Source: Candidatus Staskawiczbacteria bacterium RIFOXYB1_FULL_38_37 (lineage in GTDB: Bacteria; Patescibacteriota; Minisyncoccia; Minisyncoccales; Staskawiczbacteraceae). From it: 64,000 nt of DNA. The notes below the pieces were generated by a model that saw only the letters and a list, made by a program, of their open reading frames with translations, was not told the origin of the DNA and made no database searches. Shown piece after piece: positions 6,234-54,990 of this stretch. The translations under genes and the position numbers were made by a program. Within the stretch, counting starts at the first letter, position 1, and each line of letters begins with the position of its first letter. Where the stretch lies: positions 9,437 to 73,436 of the forward strand of contig MHPK01000003.1 of assembly GCA_001822075.1 (NCBI GenBank), written 5' to 3'.

Positions 6234-7166
6234 ATGATATGTATTATAGCCCTAGTGGTTTTTTCCATTGTGGGAATATTCAGCGCAACGCATAGGGCTT
6301 TGGCAAAAGAAGCTCTTGATTGCGTTCTACGCAGAGTAACTTTCCGACCGTGCAATACGGGATTCGATGAGAAGATGAAGGGAATGATTGTTGGTAGACT
6401 GCTAAATAGGTCTGTCTTCGCAGCTCGTTTTGTAAAAAAATACTTTGAGTTCATTTCTTGGGGATTTATTGTTTTGACACTAGTTAGCGGTTTTTATACA
6501 ATTCAGGGAGGATACAACTTCTATCTTTACGGAAGTTGCAATGGATTAAACCAAAGCGGATTTTGCGCTTTCGATCCAAAGGGAGAGAACAATAAGGTTA
6601 CCGACATAAGCCAGACGTGCGGCACTGAGGAAAAATCAGAAAAAAATGTTTCATTAAGTGGCGTTGATTTATCATCTTTTCCCTCAAAGAATGTCGGTTC
6701 TAAAGATACAGTAGTTCTAATTGGGTGTTATGAATGCGACTATACTAGAAAGGCATATCCTGATATTCAAAAACTAGTTCGAGAGAAAAAAACTAACTAT
6801 ATTTTTGCTCACTATCCGGCTAAAGAAAATACCAATTTTCTGTCTGAAGTCGGCTATTGCGTATACAAAGAGTACGGAGAAAGATTTTGGCCATTTAACG
6901 ATTATTTATTTACAGTCGATAAAGTGCAAATTTATCAACCCTCATATGTTGAGATGATATTGAGAAACTTTGATTTTGATGTTAATAAAATAAATGAATG
7001 CGTTGAGAATCCTGTAACTAAACAATTGGTTAGTGAACAGGTCGGTGAGTTAAGAAAAACTCATTTGTATGGAACACCCACAGTCTTTATAAATGGTAAG
7101 GCGTTTGTCGGGCCTAAACCTTATAGAGTGTATAAAAGTGTGCTTAATAAATTTATTATCTTTTAA
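6234..7166 (+). CDS. membrane-anchored DsbA/thioredoxin-like thiol:disulfide oxidoreductase
   Basis: N-terminal TM segments with paired Cys; CxxC (GCYECDY) and cis-Pro motif YGTPTVFINGK. Confidence 0.6.
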   Translation: MICIIALVVFSIVGIFSATHRALAKEALDCVLRRVTFRPCNTGFDEKMKGMIVGRLLNRSVFAARFVKKYFEFISWGFIVLTLVSGFYTIQGGYNFYLYGSCNGLNQSGFCAFDPKGENNKVTDISQTCGTEEKSEKNVSLSGVDLSSFPSKNVGSKDTVVLIGCYECDYTRKAYPDIQKLVREKKTNYIFAHYPAKENTNFLSEVGYCVYKEYGERFWPFNDYLFTVDKVQIYQPSYVEMILRNFDFDVNKINECVENPVTKQLVSEQVGELRKTHLYGTPTVFINGKAFVGPKPYRVYKSVLNKFIIF

Positions 7167-35008: not shown

Positions 35009-35013
35009 TCTGG

Positions 35014-35087
35014 CATAACACATAACATAGAACACATAACAAAAAACTCCGTCGTTTTGTTCCATGTTTTATGTTCCATGTTCCATG
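35014..35087 (+). repeat. heptad-repeat element copy A (CATAACA-type arm, spacer, ATGTTCC-type arm)
   Basis: CATAACACATAACATAGAACACATAACA ... TTTTGTTCCATGTTTTATGTTCCATGTTCCATG; its last ATG is the trmD start. Confidence 0.85.
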
Positions 35088-35825
35088 ATAAAGTTTGATA
35101 TTATTACAATTTTTCCGGAAATTTTTAAGTCCTATTTAGGCGAGAGTTTAATTGCGCGGGCGCAGAAAAAAAAGCTTATAAAAATAAATATTCATAATTT
35201 AAGAAAATGGACAAATGACAGCCATAAAACTGTTGATGACAGGCCGTTTGGCGGGGGATTGGGAATGGTTCTAAAAGTAGAACCAATTTTTAAAGCAGTA
35301 AAACAAATAAAAAAAAGTCCCGCCGCAGCGGGATCCCGCTATGGCGGGACAAAAGTAATTTTATTTACTCCGCGCGGAAAAAAGTTTGACCAAAAATTAG
35401 CTAATAAGCTTTCTAAATTAGACCAAATAATTTTTATTTGCGGAAGATACGAGGGCGTTGATGAAAGGGTGGCAAAAAAAATAGCTGACATGGAAATTTC
35501 AATTGGAGACTACGACTTAATGGGCGGGGAATTGCCAGCTATGGTGGCAATAGAAACAATTTCCAGATTAATTCCAGGAGTTTTGGGCAAGCCCCAATTA
35601 TTAAAAGAGAGAATAACAAAATCCGGCGGATTTATTGAATATGCCCAATACACCCGCCCGCCAAAATTTTTTGTTAACCTGCCAAAATTTCAAAAGAAAT
35701 TTAGAGGGGCAAAAAAATTTAGGCGGGCGAAGCCCGAAGTTTGGTCTGTCCCTAGAGTGCTCTTGTCTGGAGACCACAAAAAAATAGAGGAATGGAAAAA
35801 AAAGCATAACAAAATCATTGAATAA
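35085..35825 (+). CDS. trmD: tRNA (guanine37-N1)-methyltransferase
   Basis: FDIITIFPEIF, GRYEGVDERV, GGELPAMV motifs; ATG 35085 is aa 8 of the track ORF. Confidence 0.95.
   Translation: MIKFDIITIFPEIFKSYLGESLIARAQKKKLIKINIHNLRKWTNDSHKTVDDRPFGGGLGMVLKVEPIFKAVKQIKKSPAAAGSRYGGTKVILFTPRGKKFDQKLANKLSKLDQIIFICGRYEGVDERVAKKIADMEISIGDYDLMGGELPAMVAIETISRLIPGVLGKPQLLKERITKSGGFIEYAQYTRPPKFFVNLPKFQKKFRGAKKFRRAKPEVWSVPRVLLSGDHKKIEEWKKKHNKIIE
35317..35350. repeat. 34-nt GC-rich nested palindrome in frame in trmD
   Basis: GTCCCGCC-GC-AGCGGGATCCCGCT-AT-GGCGGGAC; codon-checked translation SPAAAGSRYGGT in the variable loop before KVILFTPRG. Confidence 0.85.
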
Positions 35826-36056: not shown

Positions 36057-36063
36057 CAAAATA

Positions 36064-36138
36064 CATAACACATAACATAGAACATATAACAGCACGATTT
36101 TTTCGTTTTGTTCCATGTTCCATGTTTCATGTTCCATG
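36064..36138 (+). repeat. heptad-repeat element copy B
   Basis: CATAACACATAACATAGAACATATAACA ... TTTTGTTCCATGTTCCATGTTTCATGTTCCATG; ends 5 nt before the rpmG ATG. Confidence 0.85.
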
Positions 36139-36142
36139 ATGG

Positions 36143-41786: not shown

Positions 41787-44700
41787 ATGGAAAAAGATAA
41801 GTTGAACGTCGCTAAAAGAATCTTTGTAAAGCTCAATGTTTTGCTGCTGATTTTTGGTTTCTTGTTTCAGCCGCCAGCTGGCGTTTTTGCGCAAAACGAA
41901 ACAAATGAAAAGCCGCCCACTTCTATACAAATAAGCGATAAGGCCGACAAAACAAAAACCCAGCTTGATAAAGCGCTTGAAGAGGTTCAGCCTAAAGACG
42001 AAAATAAAAATTTTGAGAAAGAGCAGAGCCAAGAAGATTCTTCAGCCGCAGAGCCTGTAGAGCAAGCCTCTGCCGTCGAGGACGAAAAAACTTCTAATTC
42101 AAACCGCATAACTATTGATGTTGATTATGCGACAGGCGCTTTTTCATATAAATATAAGCTTGACATTCCTGCTGGGCGCAATAGCTTAAACCCTATAATA
42201 GATTTAAAATATAATTCCGAAGATAAAAACAATGCCTCGGAAATAGGTTTTGGGTGGTCTTTGTCTATTCCAAAAATTAAAAGGCTCAATAAAAGGGGAG
42301 TTAATTTGCTGTATGAAAGCAACGATTTTTATTCATCGCTCTCTGGCGAACTCGAAAAAATATCCGAAAGCGCTTTTGGCGCAAAAATTGATGATGGCTC
42401 AATGTTGGATTACCAATTAAACAATAATGTTTGGACAGTTACAGCAAAGGATGGAACAAAATATATATTTGGCGGAGAGACGTCTGCCATGCTTGAAGAC
42501 CCTTCTGATTTGTCAAAGGTTTACGAATGGTATTTAAGCAGAATTGAAGACACAAACGGAAATTTTATTTCATACAATTATTATGATGACACAGCCAACA
42601 ACGTTGTTTACCCCGATTCGATTACTTACACAAATTATGGCGGAAGCGCAGGTATTTATGAAATTGATTTTATAAAAGAGGCAAGGCCAGATGAATATTT
42701 TAGTTATGCTCCCGGATTTTTAACAAAGACAACAAAAAGAACTGCCCAAATTCAAGTTTTAACCAATGGATTATGGACTAGAAAATATGTATTAGGATAT
42801 GAACAGGGCGATAATGGTTACCGCTCCATGCTCAATTCTGTAACTGAATACGGCAGAGATGAAGCGGGTGCAATAACCGCTTTGCCCGAAATGAGCATGT
42901 TATACAGCGCAGGAGAAAACAGCTTAGTTAATAACAGCAATAATAATTTTCCATGGCCCGAATCTCAAAACCAGCCGGCCTCTCCTTTTTCTCTTGCCGA
43001 CGGATATCTGCGCGTAATGGATTTAAACGGCGACGGATTAAAAGACATCGCCAAATCATACAATATCCAGATAAACGGAATTGATAAGCCGGTATTTTGG
43101 GTTTTGGTTAACACCGGCCACGGCTGGGCGCAAGACACCAGCTGGACCCAGCCTATTTACTCTTTTGTTGATGGACAGGGCAGAACCATTGAAGGAAAAT
43201 TTGTTTTTTCAGGAATTGACACAGGAGATTGGAATGGAGACGGTAAAGATGACTTAATCAGGTTTTGGAGAGAAGACTTGGGCGGAGGCAGGGATTTGCA
43301 GCACGTTGTGGTTCTTTTGAATAATGGCTCTGGTTGGACGCAAGATAAAAATGTTTCAATTGATAATATTACATATTCTAATGCTTGTACTGGCGGCAGC
43401 ATATATATTATGTCTGGAAATTCGGGCGGACGTTTTGTTGATTTAAACGGCGATGGTTTTTTAGATTATGTTTATGCTTATAATATACAAATCAATGGCG
43501 TACACTGTCCGATATTTGCAGTGCTTTACAATGAAGGAGGAAACTTAAAATGGGACCAAAGCGTTACTGTGCCCTGGGTAAATAATGGCTCTGGCAGCGC
43601 CCCGCTTTCCCTAAACGACAGCATAAAAGCTCTTGATTTAAACGGCGATGGTTTGCTTGATTTTATATGGGCCTTGGATAACTCCAATCCTTATTTTTGG
43701 GTTTTGATAAACACCGGCCACGGCTGGGCGCAAGACACCAGCTGGACCCAGCCCACATACACATATTTAAGTCCATCAGGGGCTCCTCAAAATGGATACT
43801 TCATAACTTCGTCTGGAGCTGGCTGGCGGCCCATGGAAATAAATGGGGATAATTTGGTTGATTTTGTGAGACTTTGGACCATTGACATCGGAGGCGGGCA
43901 TTCAGTTGGCCGAAGCGCTGTTTTGGTTAACACCGGCCACGGCTGGGCGCAAAACGATTCTCTGCTTGCTGTTGGCAATTATACGGCCAGCAATAACGCA
44001 ACTGGCTATCCTATAACAACTAAAATGTCAGCAACCATAATTTTTGATGCTAATGGCGATGGAATGGACGACATAATGCATACAGCAGTTTCGCAGACAA
44101 ACGGAGTTTATGATGTAACAGACTGGCTTATGCAAAATACAGGGCATTCTGCCAATCTTGTAGAAAAAATAACTCTTCCTGAAGGCGGAAACTTTTCGTT
44201 TGATTATAAGGCAAGCACAAGCTACACAGACCAATCTGGCAATCTTTTAAACCCAAATCTTCCAATAACCTATAACACATTAAAATCTGTAACAAGTAAC
44301 GATGGCTTTGGAAATCAGGCAGTTACAACTTACGAATATGCAGATGGAAGCTATTTTTATAATAACGTCTATGACCGCAGGTTTGCCGGATACGGAAAAA
44401 TTACAGTTCAAGACCCTGTTGGCAATAAAACTATAATTTATAATCATTTAGGCAATGGCTTGCAGGCGGGAGAAACGGGTTCTGACCCGGCTGACGGAAG
44501 CTTAATAGGCAAAGCTTACAAAACGCAACGTTATGATGCTTCAGGAAACCTGTTTTCTGAAGCATATACAGATTGGGTGAGTTATGATTTAGGAAATAAT
44601 AGAGATTTTACGTATAAGGCAAAAGAAGTGTCCAATGAATCCGGAAAACAGAGCGCTGTTGAATATATTTATAATACAACCACAGGAAATTTAACAAACC

Positions 44701-47700
44701 AAACCAATTATGGCAAAGTATTGGCTTTGGCTGGCAATTTTACTGACATAGAAGCAGACAAGCGCGCAGCAAACTACACCTATACAGCAGCAGGCCCCAT
44801 ATTGCCCTCAACATTAGAAATTCTTAACCATACAGGCAACAAAGTCAGCCAGAAAAAATTTTATTATGATAACCAGCCGCTCGGCGCAGCTGTTAAGGGA
44901 AACCAGACAAAAATTGAATTTTGGCTATCGGGCGGCGCATACATTAACTCTCAAAAAACCTATACCAACAATGGTCTGGTGAAAACAGAAACCGACCCAA
45001 TGGGCAACGTCACAGAATACTTTTATGATGCTTATGATATGTATCCTGAAGTTGTTACCAATCCGTTATCTCAAAGCGCTTATTATGTTTATGATTATGG
45101 CATTGGAAAACCAAAACAAATCACGGACGCCAACGGGAATATATTTAAAAATTATTTTGACGGCTTGGGCAGAATTTTAAGGGCAGAACAGCCGGACGAA
45201 ACTAACCCTGCAGTTTTAGTTATTAAAACATCTTATATTTATAATAATGCCTCGCAAGCCGTGAGCATCCAAAAAACAGATTATCTGGATTCCTCAAATT
45301 TTGTTTCCAGTTATAATTATTACGACGGCTTGGGCAGAATTATCCAAACAAAAAAATCTGCTGAAAATAATAATTTTTCAACAAAAGATTTTGTTTATGA
45401 TAACCGTGGAAATTTGCAAAAAGAATCTTTGCCGTATTTCTCAAATATTTCAGCAAGAACAGCATCCAGCTCAACGTCGCAGCTTTATACAACTTATGTT
45501 TACGATGCTTTAAATCGTAAAATCAGCGAAACAAACGCAGTTGGTGCAACTTCTTTTGCATACCAAAACTGGCAGACAACAATTACAGACGCAAACAACA
45601 AACAAAAAGATTATGTTTATGACGCATATAATAATTTAATCCAGGTAAAAGAGCATAAAAGAGCTTACACATATATAACCTCTTATGTTTATGATGCAGC
45701 CGGAAATTTAATAAACATCACAGATGCTTTGGGAAATGTGCGCAATTTTAGCTATGACAAATTAGGCAGAAGGTTAACATCCCAAGATTTGCGCAGCCCG
45801 GCGGATTCTGTTTTTGGCGCGTGGAGATATTTTTATGACCGCAACGGAAATTTAATCAGTTCAATTAATCCTGAAAGGCAGATAATTGTTTATACCTACG
45901 ACGCATTAAACCGCAAAACTAGCGAAAACGATACTAGCCAAACAGGCGCAGAGTTAGTTTTGAGATATGACGATTGCAAAAATGGCGCAGGAAAGCTTTG
46001 TTATGCAGCTCCATTCGGGCTAAAAGAAAATTTTGAATATTCGCCAACGGGAAACACAACTAAAGACACAAAAAGAATTGCTGATACGTTTGTAGCCAGA
46101 ATTTTTGCAACAGAATATGCTTACGACCGCCAGGGCAATCAAACTTTAATTACAAACCCTGATTTATCGCAAATAAAATACCAATATAATATGGGAGGCT
46201 ATCCGGAAAAAGTTTTGTATAAAGAATCGAGCGGCGCAGATTTTGCAGAAATTGTAAGCAACTTTGATTATACGTCTGCAGGCCAAATTTCAGACATTTA
46301 TTATGCCACCGGCGCCCACACAACAAACACTTATGACGCAAACAAGCTTTATAGATTAACAAAAAAATTATCTGTTTCCGGAGACGTTAATCTGCAGGAT
46401 ATTTCTTACCAATATGACAATGTTGGAAATATAAAACAGATAATTGATAATTCCAGCACAGATGCCAGAAAAACCGTGGTTTATGTTTACGACGATTTAT
46501 ACAGATTAACTTCAGCTTCGGCAACCAACACAGCCAACAGCCAGAATTATACTGAAAGTTTTGTTTACGACGCAATAGGAAATATATTGTCAAAAAAAAT
46601 AAATGGAGAAAAAATAAATTACAGATACAAAGGAAATTTAAACAATACTGGCTCTGATTATGCAAACCCTGACGCCGCGACAGAAATAGCAGGAGATGTT
46701 TCAACCAGCTATAAATACGACCGCAACGGGAATATGACCGGCCAAGGATTGAATATATACAAGTATGACTATAACAATCGGCTGTTATCTTTTACTGCGC
46801 CGGGCGACCCCGCCCCTTATGATGGAAGAATAGATTATGCCTATGACCACACAGGTCAGAGAATAAAAACAAGAAAATTCGCCAGCGATGGAATTTTTGT
46901 GACATATTATCCAACTATGTATTACAACAAATTGCGGGACGAAATCACAAAGCATATTTTTGCAAACGGCTTAAATCTTGCTACAATAGAAGTAACAGGG
47001 GACACAGCAAAAACATATTTTAACTTTTCAGACTCCCTTCAAAGCTCAAGTGTGATGACCGACCAAACCGGAGCTGTTGTGGAAACAATGGATTACTACC
47101 CGTTTGGCGAAATACGGCTAGACAGCAAAACAGCAGATTTTGCAGAACAGCGCAAATACATAGGTCAGGAATACGACGAGGACACAGGGCTCAACTACCT
47201 TAATGCCAGATACTACAACTCCGCCATAGCAAGGTTCGTGACCCAAGACCCGATGTTTTGGAACTTTGACAGTTCATGGCTGGCAGACCCCCAAAACCAA
47301 AATGCGTACGCATACGCGCGGAACAACCCGATAACATTGTCAGACCCCTCTGGCGAAAAAGCATGGATAGAGTCTAAGTCAGTTTTTGATGTAAGGGGAA
47401 ATGCTGTTGGAATTCATACTTATTTTAAAGCAGTTCCAAATCATCCCGACGAAATTAATATTCAGGGTTTGCCCAAAGGAGCAGAGGGATTTACTATGGG
47501 CGGATATAACAGCAGTAATTTTGGTCCGACTAACAAGTTGATAAAAAATATGGGAACCACTGAAACGAGCTGGGATAAAGATACAGCTTTTGGTGATGGG
47601 GTGAAAATAAATAGCATGGAGATTAATCCGCCCGAAGGTCAAAATGACACTCAATTTATTAATAATCTCGGAAAGATTTATAATGAAACTGACTTGTCGG

Positions 47701-47975
47701 GAATGAATTATTTTAGTCTTGGTAATGTTAGAATAGGGAACACAAGTCTCTTTTATGATGCAAACTGCAACAATTTTTCTTACACACTAGGCGTAAAGGC
47801 AGGAGTAAAAGACCAAATGGATTCATTTGATCCAGGTCCTGGCGTATCTAGATCTATAGGTGAATATGGTTATAAGACAACCCTACCAACGACAAGTGTG
47901 TATAGAGAAATTAAGAATCAAATAAACTCATTAAAAGAAAGAGTTGGTAGTTTTATTAGTTCATTAAATAAATAA
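41787..47975 (+). CDS. SpvB/FG-GAP(VCBS)/RHS-repeat polymorphic toxin (2062 aa)
   Basis: Signal peptide; SpvB-type GFGWSLSIP; six DxNGDGxxD repeats; many YD repeats (YxYDxxGN); RHS core ...YLNARYYNSAIARFVTQDP...NNPITLSDPSGE; ~205-aa unassigned C-terminal domain. Confidence 0.9.
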   Translation: MEKDKLNVAKRIFVKLNVLLLIFGFLFQPPAGVFAQNETNEKPPTSIQISDKADKTKTQLDKALEEVQPKDENKNFEKEQSQEDSSAAEPVEQASAVEDEKTSNSNRITIDVDYATGAFSYKYKLDIPAGRNSLNPIIDLKYNSEDKNNASEIGFGWSLSIPKIKRLNKRGVNLLYESNDFYSSLSGELEKISESAFGAKIDDGSMLDYQLNNNVWTVTAKDGTKYIFGGETSAMLEDPSDLSKVYEWYLSRIEDTNGNFISYNYYDDTANNVVYPDSITYTNYGGSAGIYEIDFIKEARPDEYFSYAPGFLTKTTKRTAQIQVLTNGLWTRKYVLGYEQGDNGYRSMLNSVTEYGRDEAGAITALPEMSMLYSAGENSLVNNSNNNFPWPESQNQPASPFSLADGYLRVMDLNGDGLKDIAKSYNIQINGIDKPVFWVLVNTGHGWAQDTSWTQPIYSFVDGQGRTIEGKFVFSGIDTGDWNGDGKDDLIRFWREDLGGGRDLQHVVVLLNNGSGWTQDKNVSIDNITYSNACTGGSIYIMSGNSGGRFVDLNGDGFLDYVYAYNIQINGVHCPIFAVLYNEGGNLKWDQSVTVPWVNNGSGSAPLSLNDSIKALDLNGDGLLDFIWALDNSNPYFWVLINTGHGWAQDTSWTQPTYTYLSPSGAPQNGYFITSSGAGWRPMEINGDNLVDFVRLWTIDIGGGHSVGRSAVLVNTGHGWAQNDSLLAVGNYTASNNATGYPITTKMSATIIFDANGDGMDDIMHTAVSQTNGVYDVTDWLMQNTGHSANLVEKITLPEGGNFSFDYKASTSYTDQSGNLLNPNLPITYNTLKSVTSNDGFGNQAVTTYEYADGSYFYNNVYDRRFAGYGKITVQDPVGNKTIIYNHLGNGLQAGETGSDPADGSLIGKAYKTQRYDASGNLFSEAYTDWVSYDLGNNRDFTYKAKEVSNESGKQSAVEYIYNTTTGNLTNQTNYGKVLALAGNFTDIEADKRAANYTYTAAGPILPSTLEILNHTGNKVSQKKFYYDNQPLGAAVKGNQTKIEFWLSGGAYINSQKTYTNNGLVKTETDPMGNVTEYFYDAYDMYPEVVTNPLSQSAYYVYDYGIGKPKQITDANGNIFKNYFDGLGRILRAEQPDETNPAVLVIKTSYIYNNASQAVSIQKTDYLDSSNFVSSYNYYDGLGRIIQTKKSAENNNFSTKDFVYDNRGNLQKESLPYFSNISARTASSSTSQLYTTYVYDALNRKISETNAVGATSFAYQNWQTTITDANNKQKDYVYDAYNNLIQVKEHKRAYTYITSYVYDAAGNLINITDALGNVRNFSYDKLGRRLTSQDLRSPADSVFGAWRYFYDRNGNLISSINPERQIIVYTYDALNRKTSENDTSQTGAELVLRYDDCKNGAGKLCYAAPFGLKENFEYSPTGNTTKDTKRIADTFVARIFATEYAYDRQGNQTLITNPDLSQIKYQYNMGGYPEKVLYKESSGADFAEIVSNFDYTSAGQISDIYYATGAHTTNTYDANKLYRLTKKLSVSGDVNLQDISYQYDNVGNIKQIIDNSSTDARKTVVYVYDDLYRLTSASATNTANSQNYTESFVYDAIGNILSKKINGEKINYRYKGNLNNTGSDYANPDAATEIAGDVSTSYKYDRNGNMTGQGLNIYKYDYNNRLLSFTAPGDPAPYDGRIDYAYDHTGQRIKTRKFASDGIFVTYYPTMYYNKLRDEITKHIFANGLNLATIEVTGDTAKTYFNFSDSLQSSSVMTDQTGAVVETMDYYPFGEIRLDSKTADFAEQRKYIGQEYDEDTGLNYLNARYYNSAIARFVTQDPMFWNFDSSWLADPQNQNAYAYARNNPITLSDPSGEKAWIESKSVFDVRGNAVGIHTYFKAVPNHPDEINIQGLPKGAEGFTMGGYNSSNFGPTNKLIKNMGTTETSWDKDTAFGDGVKINSMEINPPEGQNDTQFINNLGKIYNETDLSGMNYFSLGNVRIGNTSLFYDANCNNFSYTLGVKAGVKDQMDSFDPGPGVSRSIGEYGYKTTLPTTSVYREIKNQINSLKERVGSFISSLNK

Positions 47976-47984
47976 AAATAAAAT

Positions 47985-48278
47985 ATGAGAGAGAAATTTA
48001 ACAATTTAATAAATCAAATTAGAAAATTGTTTTTTGGAATATTGTTCGGTTTTGGTATAGAGCTTTTTTTTGGAGTGGGATTGTCCTATTTCTTAGAAAA
48101 ATTTATCACAAATGATTTTGATCAACAATTGTTTGTGATACATTATCCATTATCGGCAATTTTAATTTTGAGTACGTATCTTATCTTTTGGAAAAAACAA
48201 TATACAATAGTTGCCGGCATTTTTTTAGGTGCCATTCTTTTTATTTTTTTATTGGCATTTTTGCTTACGGGTGTTTAG
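47985..48278 (+). CDS. small 3-TM membrane protein, candidate immunity protein
   Basis: Starts 9 nt after the toxin stop; three hydrophobic helices; position typical of Rhs immunity genes. Confidence 0.5.
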   Translation: MREKFNNLINQIRKLFFGILFGFGIELFFGVGLSYFLEKFITNDFDQQLFVIHYPLSAILILSTYLIFWKKQYTIVAGIFLGAILFIFLLAFLLTGV

Positions 48279-48412
48279 TTCGTGGCATAAATGGGGTCAT
48301 GTGATAAATGGGGACAATAAATGAATAAATGGGGACAGCCACCATTTATTTGCTACAATATGTGGTAATTGTGTGGTAATTGGTAATTGGGACAGCCACC
48401 ATTTCAGTCAGA

Positions 48413-48578
48413 GTTAAAGGGGTCAGGTACCTTTGATTGTCATTCTAATCGTGATACACTTAATTAATGCCAAGGGTTTTACGAGTATAAGGGTTAAGGG
48501 GAGGGTTAAGGGGTCAGGTACCTTTGATTGTCATTCTAATCGTGATACACTTAATTAATGCCAAGGGTTTTACGAGTA
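48413..48578 (+). repeat. tandem duplication (75 + 74 nt, ~92-nt period) of the RayT left end
   Basis: GTTAA(A)GGGGTCAGGTACCTTTGATTGTCATTCTAATCGTGATACACTTAATTAATGCCAAGGGTTTTACGAGTA occurs twice. Copy 2 carries the real ATG (48558). In copy 1 the same ATG is followed by a stop after 7 codons. Confidence 0.9.
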
Positions 48579-49245
48579 GATATTGGAAATCAAATTTACC
48601 ATGTCCTTAATCGGGCAAATGCCCGTTTGCCGATTTTTTTTAAAGAACAAGATTATCAGTTGTTTGAGAACATTCTTGAAAATGGCCGTGAAAAGTTTGA
48701 TATGCGTATTTTAGCTTACTGCTTGATGCCGAATCATTTTCACTTAGTCTTGCAACCTAAGGAAGATGGCGGTTTGCAAAGGTTTATGCAGTGGGCGACC
48801 TTAACACACACGCAACGTTGGCACAGCCAAAACAAAACCATAGGCTCGGGGCACCTGTATCAGGGCAGATACAAATCGTTTATCATACAAGAAGACAACC
48901 ACTTATTGGCAGTCATCAGATATGTGGAGCGCAACCCGCTCCGAGTTAATATTGTCAAACAAGCAGAAGATTGGCGCTTTTCAAGTTTGTACCGCAGGAT
49001 GTTTCCAAAAGAATTTAAAATGCATAAAAGAATTTTGTCAGACCTGCCGATTGATATGCCCAAAGATTATCTCGCTTTTGTTAACCAACCGCAAACAAAC
49101 GAAGAAATCGCGGCTATACGTTATTCGGTTAACCGCGGCAGACCTTTTGGCAATTGTGAGTGGGCTGATAAAATTATTAAGGCGTTCGGGCTTGAATCAA
49201 CCGTACGGAGCAGGGGCAGGCAAATCAAAGGTACCTGACCCCTTT
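48416..49245 (+). mobile_element. RayT gene bracketed by 23-bp inverted repeats
   Basis: AAAGGGGTCAGGTACCTTTGATT (48416-48438, and one A shorter at ~48508-48529) versus its exact reverse complement AATCAAAGGTACCTGACCCCTTT (49223-49245); each holds the AGGTACCT palindrome. Confidence 0.65.
48558..49238 (+). CDS. REP-associated / IS200-like Y1 (HUH) tyrosine transposase (RayT-like)
   Basis: YHVLNRANARLPIF, HUH motif LMPNHFHLVL, catalytic-Tyr region IRYVERNPL. Confidence 0.85.
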   Translation: MPRVLRVDIGNQIYHVLNRANARLPIFFKEQDYQLFENILENGREKFDMRILAYCLMPNHFHLVLQPKEDGGLQRFMQWATLTHTQRWHSQNKTIGSGHLYQGRYKSFIIQEDNHLLAVIRYVERNPLRVNIVKQAEDWRFSSLYRRMFPKEFKMHKRILSDLPIDMPKDYLAFVNQPQTNEEIAAIRYSVNRGRPFGNCEWADKIIKAFGLESTVRSRGRQIKGT

Positions 49246-49336
49246 GTTTGACCCCTTTGTTCGACCCCCCCTTTGTTCGACCCCTTTGTTCCTTTGTTCT
49301 TTGTTCCCTTCTTTGTTCCCTTTGTTCCTTTGTTCA
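49238..49336 (+). repeat. degenerate pyrimidine-rich short tandem repeats (GACCCCTTTGTT decaying to CCTTTGTT)
   Basis: Read directly; directly upstream of the 49340 promoter. Confidence 0.8.
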
Positions 49337-49339
49337 CAT

Positions 49340-49367
49340 TTGACGTGCTTGTATGAAAAAGTATAAT
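49340..49367 (+). promoter_or_regulatory. sigma70-type promoter (TTGACG-16-TATAAT), near-leaderless
   Basis: TATAAT ends 49367, ATG at 49375, no SD. Confidence 0.6.
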
Positions 49368-49374
49368 TAAATAT

Positions 49375-49611
49375 ATGAAAGAAGATTTTACAGAATTAGT
49401 TGAATATTTGGATGAGAAATTTGGCAAAGTTGCAGAAGATTTTAAGGAATTAAAAGATAATTTTAATTTACTGCAAAATTCTGTTGATGCTTACGCAGTA
49501 AAAGCCGATACATATTTTCAGGAGATGACCATGCTGTCTGAAAAGGTTAACCGCCACGATAAGTGGCTTTTACAAATTGCTGAAAAATTAGGCATTAAAT
49601 TAGAATACTAA
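49375..49611 (+). CDS. small coiled-coil protein, twin paralog 1 (78 aa)
   Basis: MKEDFTELVEYLDEKF... ...QIAEKLGIKLEY; both ends identical to 51372..51626. Confidence 0.65.
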   Translation: MKEDFTELVEYLDEKFGKVAEDFKELKDNFNLLQNSVDAYAVKADTYFQEMTMLSEKVNRHDKWLLQIAEKLGIKLEY

Positions 49612-49653
49612 GTAAAAAAGGGATCAGGGGACTTTAATAACAAACAATTTTTA

Positions 49654-49690
49654 ACGGCTCAACCCTATTTAGGTTGAGCCGTTGGCGTTT
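49654..49690 (+). terminator. intrinsic terminator
   Basis: ACGGCTCAACC-CTATTTA-GGTTGAGCCGT followed by TGGCGTTTT. Confidence 0.55.
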
Positions 49691-49793
49691 TGGGGCTGGT
49701 TTTGCGCTTGCTGAAAATTTGACTAATTGTGATTATTCTGGCAGAATAAAATACAAATCATTCAATCAGTATAAAATTATAAAAGCAGTAAAA

Positions 49794-50177
49794 ATGAAAG
49801 TAAATGAACTTATGGCATCAAATCAAAAAAAGTCAGCCATAGACGTAAAATACATTAAATGGTGCCGGAAGATTGCTAAAACAAACAATGAAGTTGAACT
49901 TATATCTCATTTTAGAGAACACGCTTATAAGCACTTCAATCGGCATAAACACGAAGGAGAACTTGGTTTAAGAATTTGGTTAATTGGAGTTTTTAATTTT
50001 ATGTATATCCTAAGAGAAAAATACCCAAAAATTACCACAGACGATATGCTGTTTAAGCTTTGTTCATACTATAAAGATTATAAAAGAGGGTCTAAGCCAT
50101 CTTTTAATATTGATAAATTTATGAGAAAATACAAGGGAGACATTAAAGATTATTATTATGAATATCAGGCAAAATAA
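49794..50177 (+). CDS. hypothetical protein (127 aa)
   Basis: In-frame ATG (aa 41) of track ORF 49674..50177, whose upstream part lies in the terminator; no motif recognised. Confidence 0.5.
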   Translation: MKVNELMASNQKKSAIDVKYIKWCRKIAKTNNEVELISHFREHAYKHFNRHKHEGELGLRIWLIGVFNFMYILREKYPKITTDDMLFKLCSYYKDYKRGSKPSFNIDKFMRKYKGDIKDYYYEYQAK

Positions 50178-50622
50178 GAAAATTTTGTATATAGATATGG
50201 ATGGCGTGTTGGCTGACTTTGATTCTGAAATCGCAAAAATTGATGCTGGCACGCTTAAAAAATATAACGGTAATTTTTGCAGTATTCCGGGTATTTTTTC
50301 AAAAATGTCCCCGATGCCCGGCGCAATTGAAGCCTATGAAAAATTATCACAAAAATTTGATACATATATTTTATCAGCTGCGCCATGGGATAATTCTTCC
50401 GCCTGGTCTGATAAACTGCAATGGGTAAAAAAGCATTTGGGAGAGGCAGCATATAAACGGTTAATAATTACTTGCCATAAAAACTTAAATAAAGGAGATT
50501 ATTTAATAGATGATACAAACAAAAACGGCGCTGGAAAATTTGCAGGCGAACTTATTTTATTTGGTTCGGCAAAATTTTTAAATTGGAAAAGCGTTTTAGA
50601 ATATTTGTTGAAAAAGGAATAG
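50158..50622 (+). CDS. 5'(3')-deoxyribonucleotidase (HAD, NT5C-like)
   Basis: YIDMDGVLADF (DxDxV/T HAD motif I), later K and DD motifs; size. Confidence 0.75.
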   Translation: MNIRQNKKILYIDMDGVLADFDSEIAKIDAGTLKKYNGNFCSIPGIFSKMSPMPGAIEAYEKLSQKFDTYILSAAPWDNSSAWSDKLQWVKKHLGEAAYKRLIITCHKNLNKGDYLIDDTNKNGAGKFAGELILFGSAKFLNWKSVLEYLLKKE

Positions 50623-50652
50623 TTCTTTAACTAACAAGAAAGGCGGTGGCAA

Positions 50653-51201
50653 ATGCCAACACGCATAGTTGTGGGAGGGGTAGCAAATTGTGGTAAATCT
50701 ACACTTACGGCATCTATTTACAGAGAGATGCAAGCCAGAGGCATTAATGTGGGCATTCACGAGTTGGATGTTTTTGAAAATACCATTCCTTATATTCTTG
50801 GCATTGAAAGCTGGGGACAGAGGATAAAAGTAAAGTCGGGCGATTGGGCAAACCCATGCATTAGCCAGGCAATCGCCACTTTTACAAGAGACAAACGTCA
50901 TTTTGTTTTAGGAGACCTTACGGGCATAATAGACGGTCTTTTAGAAAAAATGGTTGAAAAGGCAGATTTGGCCATTGCTATTGGAAAAGACCAGCAAAGT
51001 CTTCAAGATTGGCTTGATTTTTTTAAATCTCAAAAAATTCCGGTAATAATAAAAGTTATTTCTTATGTTGGCGACACCTTGCCCCAGTGTTCTTTTGAGG
51101 ATGTAATTTTTGTTGGAAACTTAAAAAGGAAAGTCTTAAAAAACGATGAGATTTATCGGGTCGTTAATCAGTTACTCATAGTGTGTAATCATGCGGATTG
51201 A
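50653..51201 (+). CDS. P-loop NTPase, unassigned
   Basis: Walker A GGVANCGKST, Walker-B-like FVLGDLTG. Confidence 0.55.
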   Translation: MPTRIVVGGVANCGKSTLTASIYREMQARGINVGIHELDVFENTIPYILGIESWGQRIKVKSGDWANPCISQAIATFTRDKRHFVLGDLTGIIDGLLEKMVEKADLAIAIGKDQQSLQDWLDFFKSQKIPVIIKVISYVGDTLPQCSFEDVIFVGNLKRKVLKNDEIYRVVNQLLIVCNHAD

Positions 51202-51237
51202 TGTTAAAATATCATCCGCTTTTTTTATTTTGTTTAG
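51193..51237 (+). terminator. intrinsic terminator
   Basis: GCGGAT ... ATCCGC followed by TTTTTTTATTTT; 5' arm overlaps the stop codon. Confidence 0.6.
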
Positions 51238-51254
51238 ATTGATATAATAAAAAA

Positions 51255-51335
51255 ATGGTGGCTGACCCCCATTTCATTTCACATTTCCCATTTCCCCCAT
51301 TCTTTTCACATTATTCACTCACCCCATTATTCGCT
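51255..51335 (+). repeat. degenerate pyrimidine-rich repeats (CCCATTT-type) starting with ATGGTGGCTGACCCCCATTT
   Basis: Read directly; the first 20 nt are the near reverse complement of AAATGGGGACAGCCACCAT at 48328-48346. Confidence 0.7.
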
Positions 51336-51336
51336 A

Positions 51337-51364
51337 TTGACCTGTCCATAGGAAGAAGTATAAT
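51337..51364 (+). promoter_or_regulatory. sigma70-type promoter (TTGACC-16-TATAAT), near-leaderless
   Basis: TATAAT ends 51364, ATG at 51372; same geometry as 49340-49375. Confidence 0.6.
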
Positions 51365-51371
51365 CAAATAT

Positions 51372-51626
51372 ATGAAAGAAGATTTTACAGAATTAGTTGA
51401 ATATTTGGATGAGAAATTTTCTAATATAGACAGACAATTAGAAAATTTGAAAGAGAATAAAACAGATAAGTCTGATATGAATACTTTGTTCAATGCGGTT
51501 GACGCTTACGCCCAAAAAGCCGATGCGTTTTTTCAGGAATTAGTGATGCTTTCTCACCAAATAAACCGTCACGAAAAATGGCTACACCAAATTGCCGAAA
51601 AATTAGGCATTAAACTGGAATATTAA
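51372..51626 (+). CDS. small coiled-coil protein, twin paralog 2 (84 aa)
   Basis: In-frame ATG (aa 40) of track ORF 51255..51626; the upstream part is the repeat/promoter region. Confidence 0.65.
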   Translation: MKEDFTELVEYLDEKFSNIDRQLENLKENKTDKSDMNTLFNAVDAYAQKADAFFQELVMLSHQINRHEKWLHQIAEKLGIKLEY

Positions 51627-51640
51627 GAGGAAAAGAATCA

Positions 51641-51667
51641 AAAAGCCCGCATTTCGCGGGCTTTTTG
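51641..51667 (+). terminator. intrinsic terminator
   Basis: GCCCGC-ATTTC-GCGGGC followed by TTTTT, A-run upstream. Confidence 0.75.
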
Positions 51668-51717
51668 GTTGTTGCAAAATACCCGAATCAGTGGTTTAAT
51701 AAATAAAAATATAAAAT

Positions 51718-52266
51718 ATGGCAACAGAAATAGAATTTAGGGGACCGTTAACAAAAAATGAATTTCAAAAATTGTTAAACTTCTTTAAAAAAGAGGCCAA
51801 GTTTGTTAAGAAAATGAAAAGAAAAACATTTGTGTTTGAAAATAAAGATAAAACATTAGACCTTAAAGTAAGAACAACCGACGGAATTCTGGAGATAGTT
51901 CTTAAAAAAGGTTTTATGGGAGCCGTAAGAAGAGAAGAAATAATTTTACCGCTTAAAACAGATTTTATAAAAGAGGCAGTAAGATTATTTTCTCTTTTGG
52001 GACATAATAAAGGGATAATCGCCACAAGAGACAATTATATTTTTAACTATAAAAATATAGAGTTTGCCTTGGTAAAGTGCCCTGGCGGATATTGTTTTTA
52101 CGAAGCCGAATTGATTAATAACAAAAAAATAAAAAATCCGGAAAAACATATTAAAGAAGTTTTGAAATCATTAAATCTTAAAGCGTGGTCGGAAAAAGAA
52201 GTTTACGAATTTATGATGTATTGCAAAAAAAATATTGACGAACACTTTGAGTATAAAAATAAATAA
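51718..52266 (+). CDS. CYTH-like domain protein (tentative)
   Basis: N-terminal EIEFRG (ExExK-like), later ...CPGGYCFYEAEL resembling the CYTH C-terminal strand. Confidence 0.45.
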   Translation: MATEIEFRGPLTKNEFQKLLNFFKKEAKFVKKMKRKTFVFENKDKTLDLKVRTTDGILEIVLKKGFMGAVRREEIILPLKTDFIKEAVRLFSLLGHNKGIIATRDNYIFNYKNIEFALVKCPGGYCFYEAELINNKKIKNPEKHIKEVLKSLNLKAWSEKEVYEFMMYCKKNIDEHFEYKNK

Positions 52267-52271
52267 AAATT

Positions 52272-52874
52272 ATGGAGATAGAATATGAGGCGACATTTTT
52301 GGATATAAATAAGGAAGAAATAAAGGAAAAATTAGAATCAGCTGGCGCGAAACTTGTGAAGCCCGAGTTTATGCAAAAGAGGGTTGTTTTTAATTTACCT
52401 GCTGGCCACGAAAAAGCGCATGCTTGGCTAAGGGTTAGAGACGAACAAGACAAAATAACAATGAGCTATAAAGAAACGGGTACAAGCAAAATAGACGACC
52501 AAAAAGAAATATGTTTAGAGATAAACGATTTTAAAGCTGGCGAAGAATTTTTAAAATCAATCGGTTGTGAAAAAAAATCATATCAAGAAACAAAAAGAGA
52601 AATTTGGGAATTAGATGGCGTTGAAATTTGTATTGACGAATGGCCATTTTTGGAACCATTTGTGGAAGTAGAAGGAAAATCAGAAAAAGAGGTAAAAACG
52701 GTTTCTGAAAAAATCGGGTTTGATTATTCTAAGACATTATTTTGCGGAGTCACACCTATTTATGCAATGAAATATGATATTAAATTCGAAGTGATTAATA
52801 ATCAAACCCCAAGAATAACTTTTGATATGGAAAACCCGTTTCTGAAATTAAACAAGAAAAAGCATGACAGATAA
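52272..52874 (+). CDS. CYTH-domain protein (class IV adenylate cyclase / triphosphatase family)
   Basis: MEIEYEATF, WLRVRDE..ITMSYK, CIDEWPFLEPFVEVEG pattern. Confidence 0.65.
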   Translation: MEIEYEATFLDINKEEIKEKLESAGAKLVKPEFMQKRVVFNLPAGHEKAHAWLRVRDEQDKITMSYKETGTSKIDDQKEICLEINDFKAGEEFLKSIGCEKKSYQETKREIWELDGVEICIDEWPFLEPFVEVEGKSEKEVKTVSEKIGFDYSKTLFCGVTPIYAMKYDIKFEVINNQTPRITFDMENPFLKLNKKKHDR

Positions 52875-53397
52875 AAAAATAAAGATAGAAAGTTTTTATA
52901 AAAAATACTTTGGCTCAAATAAGGAAGTTGTTGAGCTTCCTTTGAAGGCATTGCGAGGACTGAAAAAAGAGGGTGTCAGTATTGAACAGTTTTTGGATTA
53001 TTTATGTCAAAAACAAGGATTACTGCTTCACGGTTCAATTCATCAAGCAAAAAATGGCAAATTAACCTCAAAGAGTAATAAGATTTTTGCATCAAATAAA
53101 TCTGCAATCGCCATAATGAGGTCTTTATATTCTAATGCAGATGTAAATTTGCAGTATTCATATTTCATTGACGATAGAAATCCGTTGACATTAAAAATAC
53201 ATACGCCGGCGAATGGAAAATTTACAAAAAAAGATTCAGGGTTTGTTTATATTGTAAAGAGTGAGGGATTCAAAAATGAGCCAAAAGGTTCTTGGCAATT
53301 TGTTAAAGAAACTGAAGAAATTGATTTTATTGCAGTTGTTGAAACAGAAAATGATGATTTCACCTATTCCGTAGAAATTTTTAATGACTTTGATTAA
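52864..53397 (+). CDS. hypothetical protein (177 aa)
   Basis: ORF track; 11-nt overlap with the upstream CYTH gene; no motif recognised. Confidence 0.5.
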   Translation: MTDKKIKIESFYKKYFGSNKEVVELPLKALRGLKKEGVSIEQFLDYLCQKQGLLLHGSIHQAKNGKLTSKSNKIFASNKSAIAIMRSLYSNADVNLQYSYFIDDRNPLTLKIHTPANGKFTKKDSGFVYIVKSEGFKNEPKGSWQFVKETEEIDFIAVVETENDDFTYSVEIFNDFD

Positions 53398-53416
53398 AAA
53401 TAATGTAAATAAAAAT

Positions 53417-54406
53417 ATGGAAAAAATTTATCCGCAAAAGTTAAGAATAGGGGATGAGGTAAGAATTATTGCGCCGTCGCGTTCCATGGCAATAATTTCA
53501 AAAGAAACAAGAGAAATAGCCAACAAACGTTTTGCTGATTTGGGTTTGAAATTAAGTTTTGGCAAACACATAGAAGAAAGCGACGAATTTATTTCTTCAA
53601 GCATAAAATCCCGCATAGAAGATTTTCATGATGCGTTTTCTAATAAAAACGTAAAAGCAGTTATCACGGCAATAGGCGGCTTTAACAGCAATCAACTTTT
53701 AAGGTATTTGGACTGGGATTTGATTAAAGAGAATCCTAAGATTTTTTGCGGATATTCGGATATAACTGCTTTAAATAACGCAATATTGGCTAAAACAGGT
53801 TTAGTTTCTTATTCCGGTCCACATTACTCAACATTCGGCCAGGAGCTCTATTTTGACTATACTTTGGAATATTTCAAAAAATGTTTATTTTCTGATGAGC
53901 TGTTTGAGATAGAACCAAGCGAGGAATGGAGCGATGATATGTGGTATAAAAATCAAAAAGAAAGGAATCTCATTAAAAATGACGGATTTTTAGTCATCAA
54001 CGAGGGCAAGGCATTGGGCACATTGCTTGGAGCAAACCTTTGCACGTTTAATTTATTGCAAGGCACGGAATATTTTCCGGAATTTCCCGAGAACACAATT
54101 CTTTTTGTAGAAGACGATGAAATGTCTAACGCAGTTACCTTTGACCGTGATTTGCAATCTCTTATACATCTACCCGAGTTCGAAAGTGTAAAAGGCATTG
54201 TAATTGGCAGGTTTCAAAACGCAAGTCAAATGACAAATGAACTTTTGATTAAAATTATTAAAACTAAAAAAGAATTAAATAATTTGCCGGTAATAGCAAA
54301 TGTTGATTTTGGCCATACAGACCCAAAAATTACTTTCCCAGTAGGCGGAGAAGTTAGTCTAGAAGTTAGAAATGGAGAAATAAAGTTAAGTATATCAAAA
54401 CATTAG
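53417..54406 (+). CDS. ldcA: LD-carboxypeptidase (peptidase S66, LdcA-like)
   Basis: Nucleophile motif CGYSDITAL, C-terminal VDFGHTDP; ATG 53417 is aa 12 of the track ORF. Confidence 0.8.
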   Translation: MEKIYPQKLRIGDEVRIIAPSRSMAIISKETREIANKRFADLGLKLSFGKHIEESDEFISSSIKSRIEDFHDAFSNKNVKAVITAIGGFNSNQLLRYLDWDLIKENPKIFCGYSDITALNNAILAKTGLVSYSGPHYSTFGQELYFDYTLEYFKKCLFSDELFEIEPSEEWSDDMWYKNQKERNLIKNDGFLVINEGKALGTLLGANLCTFNLLQGTEYFPEFPENTILFVEDDEMSNAVTFDRDLQSLIHLPEFESVKGIVIGRFQNASQMTNELLIKIIKTKKELNNLPVIANVDFGHTDPKITFPVGGEVSLEVRNGEIKLSISKH

Positions 54407-54414
54407 ATAATAAA

Positions 54415-54990
54415 ATGCAAAAAATAATTTTAGCGTCGCAGTCGCCGAGAAGGAGAGACCTGCTTAAACAAATTGGCTTGGAGTTTGAAATAGACCCAAG
54501 TAACTACGAGGAAGATATGACTTTAGACATGGAGCCGAGAAAATTGGCGGAGTATTTATCTTTAGGAAAGACAAAAGATGTGGCACAAAGGCACAAGGAT
54601 TCAATTATTATTTCGGCAGATACAATTATTGCTGTTGATAATGAGGTGTTTGGAAAACCGAAGACTCCGGAAAAAGCAAAATATATGTTGCAGAAACTTA
54701 GCGGGAGAGCTCATTCTGTTATAACTGGTTTTACTATAATTAATACAGAAATAAACAAACAAATTTCAAAATCAGTTGAGACCAAAGTTTATTTTAAAAA
54801 TATTTCAGAAGAAGAAATGGATGCATATATTGCTACGGGTGAACCATTGGATAAGGGGGGAGGTTATGCTATACAAGGCATGGCAGCTTTATTTGTGGAA
54901 AAAATAGAAGGAGATTATTTTAATATTGTAGGTCTTCCCATTATTGCGATAGTTGACGAGCTGAAAAATTTCGGTATTAAAATTTTATAA
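54415..54990 (+). CDS. maf: Maf-family nucleoside triphosphate pyrophosphatase
   Basis: ILASQSPRRRDLL, SADT, GGYAIQG motifs. Confidence 0.9.
   Translation: MQKIILASQSPRRRDLLKQIGLEFEIDPSNYEEDMTLDMEPRKLAEYLSLGKTKDVAQRHKDSIIISADTIIAVDNEVFGKPKTPEKAKYMLQKLSGRAHSVITGFTIINTEINKQISKSVETKVYFKNISEEEMDAYIATGEPLDKGGGYAIQGMAALFVEKIEGDYFNIVGLPIIAIVDELKNFGIKIL

Follow-up and report, generated by a model that had tools for sequence, protein, structure and literature searches.

In Escherichia coli and Pseudomonas, hairpin-forming repetitive extragenic palindromic (REP) sequences flank, in inverted orientation, a gene for a REP-associated tyrosine transposase (RAYT or TnpA_REP), the whole being termed a REPtron, and the stem of canonical REPs has a 5' GT[AG]G tetranucleotide at its foot (PMC6006769). 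Here we describe a locus with comparable features in 64,000 nucleotides (the window) of contig MHPK01000003.1 of Candidatus Staskawiczbacteria bacterium RIFOXYB1_FULL_38_37, in which two paralogous small coiled-coil genes, copy A and copy B, each preceded by degenerate pyrimidine repeats, stand on either side of three other genes. The original prediction took this arrangement for a duplicated boundary or regulatory module; our analysis instead explains it, with good probability, as three ordinary things superimposed on each other, namely small self-contained genes, a resident gene accompanied by a chimera that arose by recombination, and repeats that form the ends of a transposase element. The arrangement is therefore mostly ordinary genome scrambling and not a new boundary device.

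The repeats are best understood from the transposase gene located directly upstream of copy A. The gene and the REP-like sequences of two types found around it are the following (window coordinates, strand, feature):

48280..48351, unstranded: REP type 1, left end, AAATGGGG reiterations followed by the hairpin AAATGGGGACAGCCACCATTT (48326-48347)
48388..48404, unstranded: second, partial copy of the REP type 1 core (TGGGACAGCCACCATTT), found by pattern search with 1 mismatch; inverted repeat I25 with 51253-51268
48417..48578, + strand: tandemly duplicated segment (period 91 nt) comprising the REP type 2 hairpin, the Y1 leader and the first Y1 codons (71-nt perfect direct repeat D4)
48558..49238, + strand: Y1 (HUH-Tyr) transposase gene, RAYT-like, 226 aa (PF01797)
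49223..49245, unstranded: right-hand REP type 2 copy (AATCAAAGGTACCTGACCCCTTT), which pairs with 48416-48438 as a perfect inverted repeat of 23 nt (I1, I3)
49237..49335, + strand: distal arm of REP type 2, reiterated outward, the pyrimidine repeat of copy A; GACCCCTTTGTTC x4 and CCTTTGTT x7 by Tandem Repeats Finder (TRF)
51249..51336, + strand: REP type 1, right end, the pyrimidine repeat of copy B; hairpin AAATGGTGGCTGACCCCCATTT followed by CCCATTT-type reiterations; inverted repeat I7 with 48331-48351

The Y1 translation matched PF01797 with an E-value of 1.1e-16 (61.5 bits, the cut-off being 23), and both an HFH motif and the tyrosine of RYVERNP are present. Two nested inverted pairs surround the gene, type 2 (48416-48529 with 49223-49335) and type 1 (48280-48404 with 51249-51336), with purine-rich mirror images on the left. 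The left copies of type 2 lie at 48416-48438 and 48508-48529, the second one being preceded by two complementary AGGGTTAAGGGG units (TRF array 48490-48513), and the 23-nt perfect inverted repeat that flanks the Y1 gene reads AAAGGGGTCAGGTACCTTTGATT; its right copy includes the Y1 stop codon TGA (49236-49238). The type 1 left hairpin folds with -7.4 kcal/mol (z = -6). When reverse-complemented, the type 1 left end aligned to 51249-51336 with 77% identity over ~90 nt, reiterations included, and the left and right ends of type 2 also align together with their reiterations. Degenerate short repeats do precede both small genes as originally described, the TRF arrays being at 49237-49335 and, with CATTTCC-type units, at 51265-51325. 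Their inverted mirror-image partners and their association with a Y1 gene lead us to a REPtron-like reading, in which the pyrimidine repeats appear to be reiterated distal arms of REP-like hairpins that flank a RAYT-like gene, and not parts of the small genes. We infer that the Y1 protein generates or maintains these reiterated ends.

As in a REPtron, the gene for a Y1 HUH-Tyr protein with a C-terminal extension lies between inverted copies of short imperfect palindromes, a single locus has more than one REP subtype, solo copies and inverted doublets occur in other contigs, and copy number varies between near-identical strains. Unlike in a REPtron, the hairpins are short and have no GT[AG]G foot, the stop codon of the transposase is inside the right copy, and the distal arm is reiterated outward up to ~10 times, giving degenerate ends of 60-110 nt; the host is a Patescibacterium, a group outside the 2018 classification, from which the 'atypical' structures of RAYT subclasses 2.6 and 3 are those that our foot-less hairpins resemble (PMC6006769). 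IS200/IS605 elements share with this locus the Y1 domain (PF01797) and the hairpins near the ends, although their TnpA is about 140-160 aa long as compared to 226 aa with the extension here, the ends here are inverted repeats, and the whole Y1 unit is found once in the 64 kb whereas those elements occur as repeated identical copies.

The same association was seen at other loci (designated by L numbers). The type 1 motif lies on both sides of the Y1 gene in L004, another Staskawiczbacterium; GGGGAC-type hairpins with reiterated halves were found beside the Y1 genes of L055, L065 and L080; and Y1 genes flanked by inverted REPs are also present in L004, L065, L148 and L192. A metagenome scan with the degenerate REP pattern gave 120 hits, most of them in high-GC contigs with no Y1 hit, which were taken as unrelated or chance matches, so that only the low-GC subset is informative. 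In these low-GC contigs the motif abuts Y1 genes, overlapping their stop codon, and is followed by 1-3 reiterated TGACCCCWTT units, with dispersed copies or inverted doublets; one low-GC contig carries six REP copies in 9 kb. Among the high-GC hits, two human-gut metagenome contigs of GC 0.61 (L113, 1863-4821; L120, 7504-10466) have inverted pattern pairs ~960 and 405 nt apart and no Y1 tblastn hit, and may represent an unrelated repeat family sharing the core by chance.

Counting repeats over the whole set of loci pointed to the same partner. Tandem repeats were present upstream of 6 of 79 genes of the small-protein family and of 59 of 667 control genes (p = 0.84), while repeats were found at 5 of 7 loci holding a Y1 gene versus 1 of 72 without one (Fisher p = 5e-6); five of the six family genes with upstream repeats sit in Y1-holding loci. 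The left end of the Y1 gene seems to be expanding or contracting, since L229 (2943-3188), 99.97% identical to the window, has three units of REP type 2 plus Y1 start where the window has two, the extra unit being ~100 nt long. A comparable partial duplication of the Y1 start was observed in L004.

The two small genes and their signals are arranged as follows:

49340..49367, + strand: copy A promoter, TTGACG-16-TATAAT, 11/12 consensus matches
49369-49422 = 51366-51419, + strand: 54-nt identical tract from the alignment of the copies, a conversion or crossover tract
49375..49611, + strand: copy A, ORF of 78 aa; codons 1-16 of B (resident-locus) type, codons 17-78 of A type
49652..49695, + strand: intrinsic terminator of copy A (stem of 13 bp, U-rich tail)
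51337..51364, + strand: copy B promoter, TTGACC-16-TATAAT, 11/12 consensus matches; left edge of the synteny with relatives
51372..51626, + strand: copy B, ORF of 84 aa; resident ortholog
51639..51672, unstranded: terminator after copy B, 15-bp stem (-25.4 kcal/mol, z = -4.8) followed by UUUUU

That these ORFs are paralogs was confirmed by BLASTP (64% identity, E 6e-37), the N-termini (MKEDFTELVEYLDEKF) and the C-termini (QIAEKLGIKLEY) being the same in both. Their first 48 coding nt are found exactly twice in the window, with shuffled sequences expecting 0. The identity had been said to extend from the -10 region through codon 16; the run up to codon 16 is correct, but the base directly 3' of TATAAT is a T at 49368 (copy A) and a C at 51365 (copy B), so the uninterrupted identity amounts to 54 nt.

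Copy B is the resident gene and borders a variable region that lies downstream of a gene for an RHS toxin-like protein. In the relatives L083-L091 there is one 84-aa gene, upstream of the same block encoding a 182-aa protein, CYTH, peptidase S66 and C39; blastn homology to L083 and L089 begins at 51334-51336, that is, at the -35 box of copy B, each strain being different farther upstream, and over its body copy B shares 95-97% identity with the lone gene that L083 and L089 have at this locus. Synteny from that box onwards and the single 84-aa gene in relatives are what make copy B the resident ortholog, and the strain comparison places its promoter exactly at a synteny breakpoint; the three intervening genes, in turn, occur on another contig or in other contexts without family genes (see below).

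A different history is indicated for copy A. Orthologs of the 78-aa type are located at unrelated loci (L092-L097, L230, L231) behind a different promoter (...GAATATAATAAAAACATATG). Copy A agrees with copy B at 48/48 positions in codons 1-16 and with 68% identity in the body from codon 17; with B-type alleles (L083, L089) the values are 45-46/48 and 66-67%, and with A-type orthologs (L092, L001, L002) they are 37-42/48 and 80-83%. Copy A shares 35 of 35 positions, counted from its -35 box up to the ATG, with the resident-locus promoter of L083, and a Thr codon ACA is common to both window copies and present in none of the orthologs compared. These mosaic identity counts, together with the L083-type promoter, show that copy A is a chimera with junctions at both edges of the conserved 5' segment, the resident-locus promoter and 16 codons having been joined to a body from the lineage of other loci. 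A misassembly at the 54-nt repeat was ruled out because the same arrangement recurs in independent assemblies from other samples.

The simplest and most likely mechanism is that homologous recombination used the strongly conserved 5' segment, by an unequal or Campbell-type crossover or by gene conversion. Such recombination would have placed a foreign body and the mobile three-gene operon upstream of the resident gene, and a recent conversion within the genome would then have homogenised the 54 nt, in the order of events that we infer. Concerted evolution or gene conversion between dispersed paralogs is known, for example, for tufA and tufB in enterobacteria. Here as there, diverged paralogs contain a sharply bounded identical tract and a shared derived substitution, unlike tufA/tufB in that the tract is only 54 nt and goes with a promoter allele matching the locus of another strain. 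Between a solo type 1-like REP and the promoter of the small gene, L083 (~6750-6840) holds the truncated beginning of a flavoprotein/CoaBC-like gene (MKNKKILVGVTGGIAAYKTCSLVN*), which also speaks for rearrangement at this position in relatives.

Some public gene calls (L081, L229, P0114) start copy B at an ATG at 51255, giving a 123-aa product (51255-51626) that runs across the REP array; the 84-aa start is favoured by the family alignment and by the position of the promoter. Reiterated REP ends can thus mislead gene callers.

Both small genes belong to a large family of acidic single-helix proteins, restricted to Patescibacteria and often multi-copy, the counts being 259 clusters (90% identity) and 1021 representatives (50% identity). 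Among GTDB species genomes there were 156 family matches, and the kept records that name a lineage are all Patescibacteria/CPR (candidate phyla radiation), some others being titled only 'bacterium'; no relatives were found in the 2.9 million viral contigs of IMG/VR. Several copies per genome, sometimes adjacent, were seen in L015, L031, L065 and L067, and seven assemblies contributed two loci each. Members are 77-133 aa long, with the N-terminal consensus MxEDFSELIxYLDEKF, a middle of variable length and a conserved C-terminal half (VDAYAxKADTYFQEMVMLSHKVDRHEKWLxQIAEKLGIKLEY). Since conserved ends around a variable middle are found family-wide, the identical termini and diverged middles of copies A and B follow the ordinary family pattern.

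The small proteins had no above-threshold match in Pfam, NCBIfam, PHROGs, PADLOC or PDB sequences; searched member by member, Pfam returned merely sub-threshold generic coiled-coil families, and a PDB profile search just tropomyosin- and HA2-type coiled-coil noise. In the public records inspected, all members are labelled 'hypothetical' or generic coiled-coil. The coiled-coil assignment of the original prediction was borne out by an AlphaFold2 model consisting of a single helix (residues 6-72, pLDDT 94) and, in copy A (pI 4.7), by a heptad register that is unbroken and hydrophobic at 82% of the a/d positions. The protein is thus likely to be a rod-like coiled-coil oligomer and, as a low-confidence guess, perhaps an abundant structural or scaffolding one. 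A functional analogy, and only that, may be drawn with ZapB-like small single-helix coiled-coil proteins, which share with it a size of ~80 aa, a continuous heptad helix, an acidic character and probable oligomerisation, although a sequence relationship was not detected and a link to cell-division genes was not found.

The other trait of the family lies in its promoters. Both window genes have their -10 box ending 7 nt before the ATG (at 49367 and 51364) and no SD-like (Shine-Dalgarno) motif was found ahead of either, in agreement with what had been predicted. A promoter matching at 10 or more of 12 positions within 80 nt was detected for 75 of 81 family genes and for 60 of 541 control genes of the same loci; the -10 box ends 6-9 nt before the ATG in 51/81 versus 21/541 (p = 1e-36); and an SD-like motif precedes 1/81 versus 70/541, being rare generally in these Patescibacteria. 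A consensus promoter at 6-9 nt from the ATG, with no SD, is thus a family-wide trait. Given a near-consensus promoter of its own and a strong terminator at both window genes, each copy is predicted to be an autonomous promoter-ORF-terminator unit producing a leaderless mRNA, the latter on the basis of the conserved promoter-to-ATG spacing. In such a unit, transcription from a near-consensus sigma-70 promoter would begin at the AUG or within ~2 nt of it, read an ORF of 78 or 84 codons and end at an intrinsic terminator. Each right REP end happens to reach up to one of these promoters. A -10 box 6-9 nt from the ATG, the lack of an SD and the frequently small products are also features of the leaderless genes of Actinobacteria and Deinococcus, for example in Mycobacterium (PMC3898074, PMC4633059); unlike in those, the layout here is deduced from sequence, in organisms where, as said, SD-like motifs are scarce even among controls.

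Tandem small coiled-coil genes of different kinds were observed in L231 (402-1331), L015 (112-841) and L031 (250-1217), where members starting with MKEDF... adjoin others starting with ML..EDIQ..., L231 having a further 99-aa type, which suggests a wider, clustered set of related small helical proteins. In addition, a motif GTTC(G/T)AA..CGTCC...GC(G)CA stops just before the -35 box at 7 of 81 homolog loci (0.25 expected), among them L018 and L045 (5932-5968 in both), L052, L046, L075 and L015, upstream of family genes. Its likeness to the 3' half of a tRNA raised the idea of a tRNA fragment or attachment (att) site, which was dropped, the motif not fitting a T-arm and RNAalifold finding no consensus structure; Aragorn placed a tRNA within ~160 nt upstream of just 3 of 81 family genes. 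Rfam scans at gathering threshold (window and 14 loci) and by E-value (6 loci) showed nothing at the arrays or upstream of the homologs, and elsewhere only tRNAs and one LOOT RNA (RF03000, 79.7 bits), the latter at 8856-8973 of L018, a Patescibacteria contig, 2.6 kb downstream of the family gene.

Several points weigh against our explanation. The sole and best NCBIfam match of the Y1 protein, NF047646 (REP-associated tyrosine transposase), reached 73.2 bits (E 1.9e-20), below the equivalog cut-off of 80; the hairpins, which read AAAGGGGTCAGGTACCTTT and AAATGGGGACAGCCACCATTT, are without the foot of canonical REPs, and those of type 2 are weak (5-6 bp, z about -1). All six REP copies of the window are inside 3 kb (48.3-51.3 kb). 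A few nt ahead of a family promoter is also where both right-hand REP ends terminate, as does one in L065; since a REP end in L065 also lies before an unrelated gene, we read this juxtaposition as chance or a general preference and not as a link to the family, a functional coupling being the less likely reading. REP ends may tend to sit immediately ahead of strong promoters or may provide -35-like sequence. On the side of the small genes, their 'leaderless' and 'highly expressed' status is read off the sequence, the recombination history admits no unique reconstruction, and two different resident-locus promoter alleles coexist in one genome.

Against this background the alternatives can be weighed. 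That array, leaderless promoter and small gene form one duplicated module which marks or regulates cassette boundaries, the interpretation originally proposed, would agree with their same order at both copies, with the synteny breakpoint at the copy B promoter and with L065, where two family genes flank a Y1-containing segment; we now regard it as very unlikely, given that 73 of 79 family genes have no upstream array, a rate as in the controls, that the two arrays are of different REP types, each with its mirror partner across the Y1 gene, and that the three-gene set is found elsewhere without family genes. Clustering the ORFs of 80 other loci showed no neighbour conserved throughout, and the family genes do not bracket cassettes. 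Their recurrent neighbours are housekeeping genes in lineage-specific synteny: the order EF-G (fusA), small gene, EF-Tu (tuf), S10, L4, L2 occurs at four loci, three of them labelled Staskawiczbacteria, and the order hpf, small gene, secA in Azambacteria. The earlier interpretation was therefore partly supported: of its expectations for homologs, the promoter context is conserved, and the repeat context and the association with cassettes are not; the twin paralogs, the leaderless-type layout and the synteny edge hold, the boundary or regulatory module does not. A plain in-place tandem duplication of the resident gene, with divergence of the middle and later insertion of the operon, would account for same-strand paralogs 2 kb apart with identical ends, and is highly improbable when the copy A body is closer to 78-aa orthologs at other loci than to copy B, relatives have a single gene at this locus, and the divergence is sharply mosaic instead of graded.

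Perfect direct repeats around a discrete unit with its own terminators might also be taken as an att-like core, a 1997-bp unit (49423-51419) inserting and excising as a circle by site-specific recombination, and L083 indeed resembles the 'empty' product, with a copy A-type promoter joined straight to a B-type gene. We consider this decidedly unlikely: besides the Y1 gene, whose kind of enzyme acts on single-stranded DNA hairpins, no integrase or recombinase is present; the repeat coincides with the coding stretch that the family conserves best; 22 contigs, drawn from many samples, all agree in the arrangement, an empty site not being observed in this strain; and RecA-type recombination on 54 nt is sufficient. 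Scarcely more probable than the boundary module is a related scenario in which the promoter and 16 codons common to all family members would act as a portable homology site, allowing Patescibacteria to capture, excise and shuffle operons from one small-gene locus to another (Campbell-type, ~50 nt), perhaps stimulated by RAYT nicking at the neighbouring REP hairpins and with the REP distal-arm arrays perhaps tuning the nearby leaderless promoters; if true, the boundary module would be real in a recombinational sense. It is simply unlikely that REP arrays have been co-opted for control upstream of promoters, their -35-like TTGAC(C/A) halves serving as binding sites for the Y1 protein, a regulator or sigma region 4 and tuning the neighbouring leaderless genes. 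In favour, the gap between array and -35 box is 4 nt at copy A and ~3 nt at copy B, that box has lookalikes in units such as TTTGACCCC, and L065 shows the same juxtaposition ahead of two different genes; against it, most REP copies in other contigs have no adjoining promoter and most family promoters seem to function without arrays. [quoted passage not shown] This identity was refuted on unit structure and has virtually no chance of being correct, because the units here, with periods of 7, 8, 12, 13, 16 and 28 nt, are contiguous and without unique spacers, and no Nop domain was detected in the ten ORFs scanned (47985-53394).

With REP/RAYT ends and recombination between paralogs accounting for the apparent boundary device, a false lead is closed. 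The novelty is modest and consists of an atypical REP/RAYT variant in Patescibacteria, with no GTAG foot and with reiterated half-site ends, and of a very widespread, uncharacterised family of ~80-130-aa single-helix proteins, confined to that group, with their own near-consensus leaderless-type promoters. For a protein that is so widespread and, judging by its promoters, apparently so strongly expressed in a phylum of tiny genomes, proteomics and structural studies would be worthwhile.

Between the two copies, the hypothetical, deoxyribonucleotidase and P-loop genes were found where they had been reported:

49794..51201, + strand: three-gene operon (Pfam), the same triad being conserved in L098-L108
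49794-50177, + strand: operon gene 1, hypothetical, 127 aa
50158-50622, + strand: NT5C 5'(3')-deoxyribonucleotidase (PF06941, E 1e-18)
50653-51201, + strand: operon gene 3, P-loop NTPase, weakly ParA/Mrp-like
~51189-51232, + strand: terminator after the operon, a hairpin followed by a run of seven T (T7), read from sequence

The triad is a conserved operon independent of family genes and REPs: it is present in at least three other contexts (L098-L108), near which neither a family gene nor a REP motif was found, and in the genome that gave L083 it is on a different contig (L101) from the small gene. UniRef gives the label DUF1722 to a relative of the operon's first gene. In PADLOC the P-loop protein hits the 'Csx3' model PDLC01515 (E 1.6e-9) and, less strongly, 'Csx3-AAA' (PDLC01045); beyond these it has only the weak ParA/Mrp matches. 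Nucleotide 'house-cleaning' genes (NT5C, CYTH, Maf, NUDIX, MazG, inorganic pyrophosphatase and HAM1-like) are abundant at 50158-54990 and in L083, L089, L102 and L004, their content varying by strain.

On the other side of the Y1 gene, 41787-48278 encodes a toxin-like RHS/YD-repeat protein of 2062 aa and, after it, a hydrophobic protein of 97 aa that probably confers immunity to it, and it is with this upstream pair that the variable region ahead of copy B begins. The same C-terminal tip and 97-aa protein are found as a pair ahead of the Y1 gene in L004 (124-1862).

Another kind of short-period repeat at gene starts is present in this genome, where two copies of an 80-nt module of 7-mer repeats were observed at 35013-35090 and 36060-36140. 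Each consists of four CATAACA-type units, a spacer and four TGTTCCA-type units, the last of which abuts the ATG of trmD or rpmG (L33), leaving no room for an SD.

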